A stretch of 64,000 bases of DNA from a virus, in UHGV virus genome UHGV-0117053; one strand, given 5' to 3'. Made by a program: the position numbers and the translations under genes. The notes beneath the pieces were generated by a model that worked only from the letters and a program-made list of their open reading frames with translations, was not told the origin of the DNA and did not search any database. Below are positions 38,200-39,668 of this stretch, one piece after another; the first letter of the stretch is position 1; every line of letters begins with the position of its first letter.

Positions 38200-38444
38200 T
38201 TATCCACAGCATAGATCCAATAAACAGATCCTAAAGAGAACCTAGGAAGATCCAAAGAAGATCCCGGATCGCTGTAAGCCGCGTCATTACTGGCCTGAAA
38301 TGGGATCAACATTGACTATACGCGATTTTATGTTGACTGTGCACGATTTATTGTTGACTGCACGCGATTTATTGTTGACTATACGCGACAGAAACATTGA
38401 CTGTAAGCGATTTTAGAGTCTGAATATTCACAGCTGTTGATAAC
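38200..38444. other. Plasmid replication origin (oriR-like): DnaA boxes, GATC cluster, five iterons
   Basis: DnaA box TTATCCACA at 38200; five GATC between 38214 and 38270; iterons at 38312-38410; inverted DnaA-like box TGTTGATAA at 38436. Confidence 0.75.
38312..38410 (+). repeat. Five direct iterons (incC-like), 21-22 bp periodicity
   Basis: TTGACTATACGCGA, TTGACTGTGCACGA, TTGACTGCACGCGA, TTGACTATACGCGA, TTGACTGTAAGCGA at 38312, 38333, 38354, 38375, 38397. Confidence 0.85.
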
Positions 38445-38491
38445 AGCCATCCAAATTGACGTCAGGCCGCGCCACACATGGAGAAACCGTG

Positions 38492-39376
38492 ATGCCGGAA
38501 GAAAGTAAAGGCTTCCTTAGCGTTGAAGAAGTTGCAGGAAATACAGGAGAAATCCACAGCCTGAAGCCCAATAACAACAGCACTATACAACCCATCGCTT
38601 TGTTGCGCTTAGGTGTGTTTGTGCCAACCTTAAAATCTACCAATGTGGCGCTACGTCGCGGATCGTCAGTTACAACAAACACAACGAACGCAACTGAAGA
38701 ACTATCAAGCCTCAAAATTGTTGAGCAGGAAGGCTATGAGGGAATTGAAATTCATGGTCCACGCCTGGATATGGATACTGATTTTAAGGTGTGGGTGGGC
38801 ATAACCTCCGCGTTGTTTGACTACGCACCTGATGATGACGGCATAATCACCCTGCCATTCTCCGAGTTTGCCGATCGATGCGGCTATCCACGTAAGCGCC
38901 TTTCAAAGGCGTTCCGTAAAAGTATTGATGACTCTCTGACACGCATTCAGCAGACAGTTGTCAAATTCCGCTTCCCGGCGGCAAAAGGTCATCTCAATAA
39001 CATTAACGTCAACTTGTTGGCATATAGCAGCCTGAATACCGAGCTTGATGTTATCGAGATCCAGCCGCAGAAACAGCTATCTGAACTTTACTATGTTGAC
39101 TATAAGCGAATCCTGAAGCTGAAGATGCTGGATAAACTAGGGCGCAAAGAGACGGCCAAGGTACTGTATACATTCTTTGAGGCTCTACCCGCCAACCCGG
39201 CACCTGTCAGCATTGAGCGCCTTAGAGCGAGGCTTAATCTCAAATCATCCGTTAGCGTGCAAAATAGCGTTATCAGAAAAGCCATGAAAGATTTGGAAGC
39301 TATTGAATATCTTAAATTTTCAGAGATAAAAAACGGCAGGAAAATCGGCTTCCAGATCCATAAGCGCAATCCATAA
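38492..39376 (+). CDS. repA: Iteron-binding replication initiator RepA (RepFIB/P1-RepA family)
   Basis: QPIALLRLGVFVP, GPRLDMDTDFKVWVGI and a NPAPVSIERLRARLNL...YL C-terminus, between iteron arrays; start at the ATG after GGAGA. Confidence 0.85.
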   Translation: MPEESKGFLSVEEVAGNTGEIHSLKPNNNSTIQPIALLRLGVFVPTLKSTNVALRRGSSVTTNTTNATEELSSLKIVEQEGYEGIEIHGPRLDMDTDFKVWVGITSALFDYAPDDDGIITLPFSEFADRCGYPRKRLSKAFRKSIDDSLTRIQQTVVKFRFPAAKGHLNNINVNLLAYSSLNTELDVIEIQPQKQLSELYYVDYKRILKLKMLDKLGRKETAKVLYTFFEALPANPAPVSIERLRARLNLKSSVSVQNSVIRKAMKDLEAIEYLKFSEIKNGRKIGFQIHKRNP

Positions 39377-39378
39377 TA

Positions 39379-39633
39379 TTGACTATATGCGATAGCGAGA
39401 AGTTGACTATAGGCGACATTCGTTGACGCTGGTGGATTTTTGCTGGCGTCAATATTCTGCAAGTCGCTATTGAGATGGCTTTTAGGGGCATTTCATCGCG
39501 TATAGTCAACGTTTCTCCCGACAATATCTTACATAGTCGATCTTTGGTGGAGTTAAATCGACTACAGTCAACTTTTGACTGTAGTCACATCGCGCATAGT
39601 CAACTATTCACATTAACCTTCGCGCATAGTCAA
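39379..39633. repeat. incA-like copy-control iteron array (about 9 copies, both orientations)
   Basis: TTGACTATATGCGA (39379), TTGACTATAGGCGA (39403), inverted TCGCGTATAGTCAA (39496), TCGACTACAGTCAA/TTGACTGTAGTCAC (39558-39588), TCGCGCATAGTCAA (39590, 39620). Confidence 0.8.
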
Positions 39634-39668
39634 CATTTGCTCGGTTCTCATCAAGCAGTGGTATTGAT

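Follow-up and report, generated by a model that had tools for sequence, protein, structure and literature searches.

The closest described replicons are the IncY type of P1 and P7 and the p0111 type found in other P1-like phage-plasmids. In P1 and P7, whose RepA initiators are the same protein (286/286 residues), the replicon sits between upfA and parA, and runs from a DnaA box, five GATC sites and five iterons spaced 21/21/21/22 bp through repA to a second array, incA, of 3 + 6 iterons. For the p0111 type, AP010962.1 (pO111_2) is the reference for the replication gene (PMC11165635). According to published surveys, repA(p0111) together with one extra gene substitutes for repA(IncY) in about half of the P1-like phage-plasmids; for example, JL22 was typed as p0111, with repA'(p0111) and gp57 in place of repA(IncY) (PMC9603915), and the RepA of SJ46 was reported to be 42% identical to that of P1 (PMC5241659). 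In Salmonella, 132 p0111 and 94 IncY elements were counted, and 17 replicon-type switches were inferred on the tree (PMC11165635). In the searchable literature, we found no description of the p0111 iterons. Here we describe the replicon at positions 38196-39640 of the 64-kb virus genome stretch UHGV-0117053 (the window), a P1-like phage-plasmid, which is very probably of this known p0111 type, in place of the IncY replicon of P1.

The repA gene of the window, whose start and end agree with the coding sequence (CDS) annotated in RCS47, is near-identical to AP010962. Its product matches the pO111_2 RepA at 292/294 residues (99.3%), and is 100% identical to the RepA of RCS47 and phi456 and 99.7% identical to that of SJ46 and JL22. 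A 1.5-kb region is 97.6-99.9% identical to phi456, RCS47, SJ46, JL22, Ro157c2YLVW and several records labelled "P1". The p0111 relatives RCS47, SJ46, JL22, phi456 and pO111_2 share with the window the iterons, a copy of the iteron inside repA, a linked T5orf172 open reading frame (ORF), the junctions and a P1-type parABS system, while RCS47 departs from it by point differences (e.g. iteron 2, TGTGTGCGA in RCS47 and TGTGCACGA here). The replicon also lies within a P1-like phage backbone: the 64 kb aligns to NC_005856 at 94-99% identity, except for four larger stretches (0.7-5.6 kb) that are replaced or inserted and for a few short gaps. By contrast, RepA is 42.7% identical to P1/P7 RepA, with homology over 92% of its length (E value 6e-59). 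A preliminary, sequence-only reading of this DNA had called the protein only partly similar to P1 RepA, which is accurate, and the identity lies far from the more than 90% that would have spoken against that view.

The iterons differ from those of P1 as well. With up to one mismatch, the core TTGACTRTRNRCGA has 12 matches in the window, where 0.47 are expected and none of 100 shuffles reached 12, and all of them are confined to 38312-39633. The origin copies have an extended consensus of about GTTGACTATACGCGATTT. The P1-like layout noticed in the sequence-only reading, with a DnaA box, five GATC sites, five direct iterons at 21/21/21/22 bp, repA and a bidirectional array downstream, was found in every part and in the order seen in P1 and P7, again between upfA and parA; with phased direct repeats (at least three) next to a rep gene, and a DnaA box and GATC cluster alongside, the locus would be classed as an iteron-type theta replicon. 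The iteron sequence is unrelated to that of P1, as the same reading had held. The 19-bp P1 iteron that it gave for comparison is GATGTGTGCTGGAGGGAAA, in agreement with the annotated P1 record, and this sequence is absent from the window, while reference P1 does not carry the iterons found here. A position weight matrix (PWM) from 14 P1 iterons detected none in the 64 kb, its best score being 15.1, outside the replicon, versus 18.4-31.1 for real P1 sites. Neither a P1-type repA nor a P1-type iteron was found in the window, and a replicon with neither a near-identical RepA nor GATGTGTGCTGGAGGGAAA-type 19-bp iterons in incC and incA is not a member of the P1/P7 IncY type.

The array downstream of repA adds further iterons beyond the minimal origin, in both orientations, and is incA-like. 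It had been read as having nine copies; the orientation pattern stands, but six copies are strong and about three are degenerate, one of which (~39445) was identified by eye, the PWM scan having missed it. When the degenerate copies are counted, the array has 3 plus-strand and 6 minus-strand copies, as in P1 incA; the minus-strand copies lie ~30-32 bp apart, and the P1 copies mostly 30-31 bp apart with two gaps of 40-41 bp. Other differences from P1 concern the origin and the size of the unit. P1 has two tandem left DnaA boxes where the p0111 replicon has one, and a single one-mismatch DnaA box (4414-4422 in the P1 sequence compared) at a place comparable to that of the two near-consensus boxes between iterons and repA in the window. 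The p0111 cassette measures 2.25 kb, with the iteron inside repA and an extra 269-aa ORF, versus ~1.5 kb in P1. Taken as a whole, the locus is in all probability a low-copy plasmid-prophage replicon and a diverged homologue of P1 oriR-repA-incA, with its own initiator and iteron specificity.

Several observations weigh against this reading. The Pfam Rep3_N domain of RepA scores 0.4 bit under the gathering cut-off (22.0 vs 22.4 bits); searches with phmmer against PDB sequences and with a three-sequence profile gave no meaningful match; the control array has three degenerate copies among its nine; a simple sigma-70 scan gave 6 hits vs 5.1 expected, which is at chance level, and none of them was a plus-strand promoter upstream of repA; and no biochemical or genetic test of p0111 RepA binding, copy control or incompatibility was found in the searchable literature. 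Likewise, when the TTGACT (-35-like) hexamers in the iterons were inspected by hand, none had a convincing -10 element at a distance of 16-18 nt. Rep3_C of RepA scores 27.3 bits (cut-off 21.1), and P1 RepA gives the mirror image of this Rep3_N/Rep3_C result; NCBIfam contains no model matching RepA, P1 RepA or the T5orf172 ORF. Because the sequence-only PDB searches gave no meaningful match, the fold was checked through a predicted structure, an AlphaFold2 model from 53 homologues (predicted local distance difference test score 73.9, with low confidence in the N-terminal ~60 residues). The top Foldseek matches of this model in the PDB are all iteron initiators, namely RctB domains 2-3 (8e-8), RepE (2.5e-6) and Pi (1.2e-4), followed by the pPS10 RepA winged-helix domain WH1 and TrfA. 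The predicted fold is thus like that of RepE (F), Pi (R6K), RepA (pPS10), TrfA (RK2) and RctB (Vibrio), with E values of 8e-8 to 6e-3 and probabilities of at least 0.99, while sequence identity to them is 9-16% and template modelling scores are 0.24-0.49 on query length. RepA is thus predicted to be a Rep3-type initiator with a tandem winged-helix (WH1-WH2) fold. Some RefSeq records name the p0111 RepA 'replication helicase', which is a misleading label.

Comparison with more distant relatives shows that the iterons change in step with RepA, against a constant DnaA/GATC layout and a constant iteron spacing of 21 bp. At 100% RepA identity the iteron is TTGACTATACGCGA; at 85%, in the E. coli contig DABKFZ010000018, it is TTGACTATGTGCGA, in five copies at 21/21/21/22 bp; at 53%, in Proteus, GTTGATGCTAGTCGAT; at 46%, in SSU5, AACCACTGTAGAGAG; and at 42%, in P1, GATGTGTGCTGGAGGGAAA. 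The SSU5/pHCM2-like replicons and those with enterobacterial 'RepB/RepFIB-like' initiators (RepA 44-49%) share the DnaA box, the GATC heptamers and iterons spaced by 21 bp, while SSU5 has the iteron AACCACTGTAGAGAG instead, a C-terminal RepA extension of ~60 aa and another phage backbone. Upstream of its repA, SSU5 apparently has two units of DnaA box, GATC heptamers and iterons (1795-2014 and 2170-2426), ~375 bp apart. The 91-kb DABKFZ010000018, considered as a possible D6-like or P1-like element, matches P1 weakly in its flanks (72% over 145 bp, in the bplB region); it may carry a sister of the p0111 replicon on another phage-plasmid backbone and be a candidate for a wider pool of cassette sources.

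The extent of the exchange relative to P1 was defined at both ends. By BLAST, the window is 97.4% identical to P1 as far as 38294 and 99.3% identical from 40545 on. At the left end, local alignment gives 95% to the end of upfA (38156), 87% over the next hairpin (to 38195) and then 69% over the left, DnaA/GATC half of oriR; since identity over this half is only 69%, the exchange took in all of oriR as well as repA, the control array and one extra gene. A swap limited to the iterons, repA and incA, with the DnaA/GATC half of P1 retained, was hinted at by the BLAST match to 38294, and was dropped in view of the same 69% identity. The host-factor half, which locally shares ~75% identity with the origin of SSU5 and with that of P1, is homologous to that of P1 and comes from another lineage, and it has diverged less than the half read by RepA. 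The right end is sharp, with P1 homology returning at 40545, after a hairpin and just upstream of the par promoter/operator. This breakpoint is shared by all presumed IncY-type plasmids among the matches listed, which start at query position 646. Relative to P1, the region is therefore a mosaic, in which homology of 97-99% is lost by about 38195-38294 and returns exactly at 40545, as implied by the chimeric maintenance module proposed in the sequence-only reading.

To the right of this junction, the partition genes are of the P1 type, as had been recognised from the sequence. ParA (type Ia with an N-terminal helix-turn-helix, HTH) is 99.7% identical to P1 ParA and 57.8% to P7 ParA, ParB is 100% identical to P1 ParB and 42.1% to P7 ParB, and parS has the P1 box A heptamers and the box B hexamer TCGCCA unchanged, with five substitutions in its central part, which contains the integration host factor (IHF) site. 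By its sequence, the partition system is accordingly P1-species type Ia, and not that of P7. The ParA and ParB proteins of RCS47 and SJ46 were given as identical to those of P7 and distant from those of P1 (PMC5241659). A P7-type par in RCS47 was ruled out by comparison of RCS47 positions 6997-9211 (of the sequence compared) with P1 and P7, where the identities to P1 and P7 are 100% and 42% for ParB, and 99.7% and 58% for ParA.

Table 1. Features of the p0111-type replicon and the adjoining partition region, in window coordinates
Feature	Position	Strand	Details
Host-factor half, oriR-like	38196-38311	+	DnaA box, five clustered GATC/Dam sites, sixth GATC
Perfect DnaA box	38200-38208		TTATCCACA
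Clustered GATC sites (five)	starts 38214, 38227, 38249, 38260, 38267		mostly AGATCC context, as in P1
Sixth GATC	38304		abuts first iteron
Origin iterons (five, direct), incC-like	38312-38410	+	14-bp cores at 38312, 38333, 38354, 38375, 38397
Near-consensus DnaA box, 1 mismatch	38424-38432	+	ATATTCACA; between iterons and repA
Near-consensus DnaA box, 1 mismatch	38435-38443	-	TTATCAACA; between iterons and repA
repA, p0111-type replication initiator	38492-39376	+	294 aa; GGAG 8 nt upstream of ATG
In-gene iteron	39096-39109	+	TTGACTATAAGCGA; encodes V-D-Y-K-R; PWM score 23.4
incA-like control array	39379-39633	both	
Strong array copies (six)	39379, 39403, 39496, 39558, 39590, 39620	+, +, -, -, -, -	
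Degenerate array copies (about three)	39423, ~39445, 39527	+, -, -	
ORF with N-terminal T5orf172 (GIY-YIG-like) domain	39669-40478	+	269 aa; between control array and parA
Terminator-like hairpin and T run	40486-40500	+	end of cassette
parA, P1-type	40647-41843	+	type Ia with N-terminal HTH; Pfam HTH_54 and AAA_31
parB, P1-type	41860-42861	+	Pfam PF08775
parS centromere, incB determinant, P1 species	42866-42948	+	

The combination of a p0111 replicon with a P1 par system is widespread. The 2.25-kb cassette occurs in 404 PLSDB plasmids, of which 391 have at least 80% of its length, as well as in 12 phage records; the plasmids come mainly from Escherichia, and some of them from Salmonella, Shigella or Klebsiella. 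The junction from the cassette to P1 par is present in full length in 394 PLSDB plasmids, and ~150 more plasmids match from 40545 onward only and are presumably of the IncY type. The similarity extends beyond the replicon, with 98.5% nucleotide identity to RCS47 over 9.7 kb and 98.8% to pO111_2 (NC_013370) over 6175 bp (ParA 100%, ParB 99.7%). Because the junction recurs in full length in so many plasmids, the p0111 replicon beside P1 par is the norm for this lineage and no unusual chimera, and because the replicon type is already named and widely surveyed, the arrangement itself is a known feature. The anatomy, homology, fold and distribution of the p0111 replicon are shown by this analysis. 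The MOB-suite labels in PLSDB for the p0111-type plasmids pLAO33 and pO111_2 are 'IncFIB,IncHI1B' or 'IncHI1B', and are misleading.

The strong copy of the iteron inside repA was overlooked in the sequence-only reading. It is also present in pO111_2, RCS47 and pLAO33, and is identical base for base and at the same offset (604 nt) in the repA of E. coli DABKFZ010000018 (4605-4618 of the sequence compared), although this repA differs from that of p0111 (RepA 85%, nucleotides 75.5% identical); in the comparison of the two genes, it falls in one of just six perfectly conserved runs of at least 14 nt. No internal iteron was found in P1 repA, and in the Proteus relative an iteron lies elsewhere within repA and in reverse orientation (4424-4442 of the sequence compared). 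The in-gene copy could be a functional RepA site, acting as a roadblock, as an extra handcuffing partner or in autoregulation.

The ORF that separates the control array from parA belongs to the exchanged cassette, and neither P1 nor P7 has it. Its N-terminal domain matches T5orf172 (PF10544, E value 4.7e-6), and the protein falls in phrog_2876 of PHROG, with a weak match to the endonuclease phrog_681; its RefSeq name is GIY-YIG nuclease family protein, and gp57 of JL22 is its equivalent (PMC9603915). In the phage collection, the 12 records with this ORF are precisely the 12 with the p0111 RepA. The ORF is intact in the window and divided into two CDS in pO111_2. One record labels it 'terminase small subunit', which looks wrong. 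Descriptions of the in-repA iteron and of the linkage of the T5orf172 ORF to the cassette were not found in the searchable literature. That either one, the in-gene iteron or the linked ORF, has a functional role is unlikely in our estimate.

Three other stretches of the window differ from P1. The 5.6 kb at 10387-15977 have no P1 counterpart and are inserted where P1 positions 85182-85188 adjoin, in the pmgT/pmgU area, which falls in a published variable region of P1-like elements; the minus-strand ORFs here include those for two Ead/Ea22-like proteins, one DUF4752 protein and one DUF7739 protein, which resemble lambdoid early-region genes. The stretches 48449-49143 and 52825-53876, also without P1 homology, occupy the positions of P1 rlfA-rlfB-pmgF and simABC, both of which are known variable regions of P1-like phage-plasmids (PMC9603915).

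Other explanations for the replicon were weighed against the p0111 assignment. The chimera could be an assembly or cointegration artefact of a single sequence, mosaic junctions being where mis-assembly would appear; nothing specific points to this, its probability is close to nil, and it is already refuted by the recurrence of the cassette and both junctions in independent complete records (391 plasmids with at least 80% of the cassette, and 394 with its junction to P1 par) and by the long matches to RCS47 (98.5% over 9.7 kb) and pO111_2 (98.8% over 6.2 kb). Alternatively, the locus could be a drifted allele of the P1 IncY replicon, still cross-reacting with P1 RepA and iterons and thus in the same incompatibility group. 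The organisation, spacing and copy numbers are those of P1, identity in the origin's host-factor half is 69% and the RepA proteins are clearly homologous, all of which would be compatible with drift. However, the iterons have no recognisable similarity to those of P1, whose PWM finds none here, RepA identity is down to 42.7%, and flanking identity falls abruptly from 97-99%, unlike the gradual change expected of drift. Moreover, two discrete types are seen without intermediates among hundreds of elements (including those of PMC9603915), and typing schemes keep p0111 and IncY as separate replicon types, which makes drift within IncY very unlikely.

A third explanation is an active spread of the cassette. 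The T5orf172/GIY-YIG-like protein might act as a homing-type nuclease, cutting IncY P1 plasmids between upfA and parA, with repair then copying the p0111 replicon in. Consistent with homing, the ORF carries a GIY-YIG-like domain and is strictly co-inherited with p0111 repA (12 phage records and ~391 plasmids), the right breakpoint is identical among the presumed IncY-type records listed, and 17 replicon-type changes were inferred on the Salmonella P1-like tree (PMC11165635); if true, homing would explain the frequent replicon-type switches in P1-like lineages. However, the domain match is weak (E value about 5e-6), no target site was identified, and the replicon persists in pO111_2 despite the split of the ORF into two CDS. 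Co-inheritance and fixed breakpoints would be equally expected from homologous recombination of old alleles flanked by 97-99% identical DNA, and homing is considered improbable.

The p0111 replicon most likely works by the P1 mechanism with a private iteron specificity, by analogy with P1 and with the solved RepE and Pi initiators; its RepA binding, handcuffing, autorepression and incompatibility behaviour are those that we infer from this analogy. RepA monomers, with tandem winged-helix domains, would bind the five phased 14-19-bp iterons and act with host DnaA, bound at the flanking box, to unwind the GATC-rich stretch next to them. Re-initiation would be restrained by Dam methylation of the five GATC sites and by their sequestration by SeqA. 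While occupying the origin iterons, RepA would in addition repress its own gene; as the promoter scan returned no repA promoter, autorepression through an iteron-embedded promoter is a presumption based on P1. The six to nine iterons downstream, in both orientations, would titrate RepA and pair with those of the origin (handcuffing), keeping the copy number near one, and this array would be expected, like P1 incA, to lower copy number and cause incompatibility in trans.

The sequence-only reading had also suggested that the replication and partition functions belong to different incompatibility groups. Since the iterons are unlike those of P1 and RepA is 42.7% identical, the RepA, incA and incC of P1/P7 should neither drive nor inhibit the p0111 replicon, and since ParA, ParB and parS are P1's own, partition (incB) incompatibility with P1 should persist. 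The replication incompatibility group would then differ from that of P1/P7, and the partition group would be that of P1. The p0111 and IncY types were stated to be such that they "can theoretically be compatible" (PMC11165635), a statement that lacks this nuance of partition incompatibility.

The additions made here to the known p0111 type are the entire oriR of another lineage, the iteron inside repA and the T5orf172 gene that always accompanies the cassette. The practical worth lies in annotation and typing, as P1-like phage-plasmids come with two replicon types and serve as carriers for ESBL (extended-spectrum beta-lactamase), mcr-1 and cnf3 genes; an explicit map of the p0111 iterons (core, spacing, control array and in-gene copy) may help here, while the picture of how such replicons work is unchanged. 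As the par system of the window is P1's and its replicon is not, it is incB incompatibility, with phage immunity as a probable further factor, and not replication control, that should limit co-residence of this element with an IncY P1.

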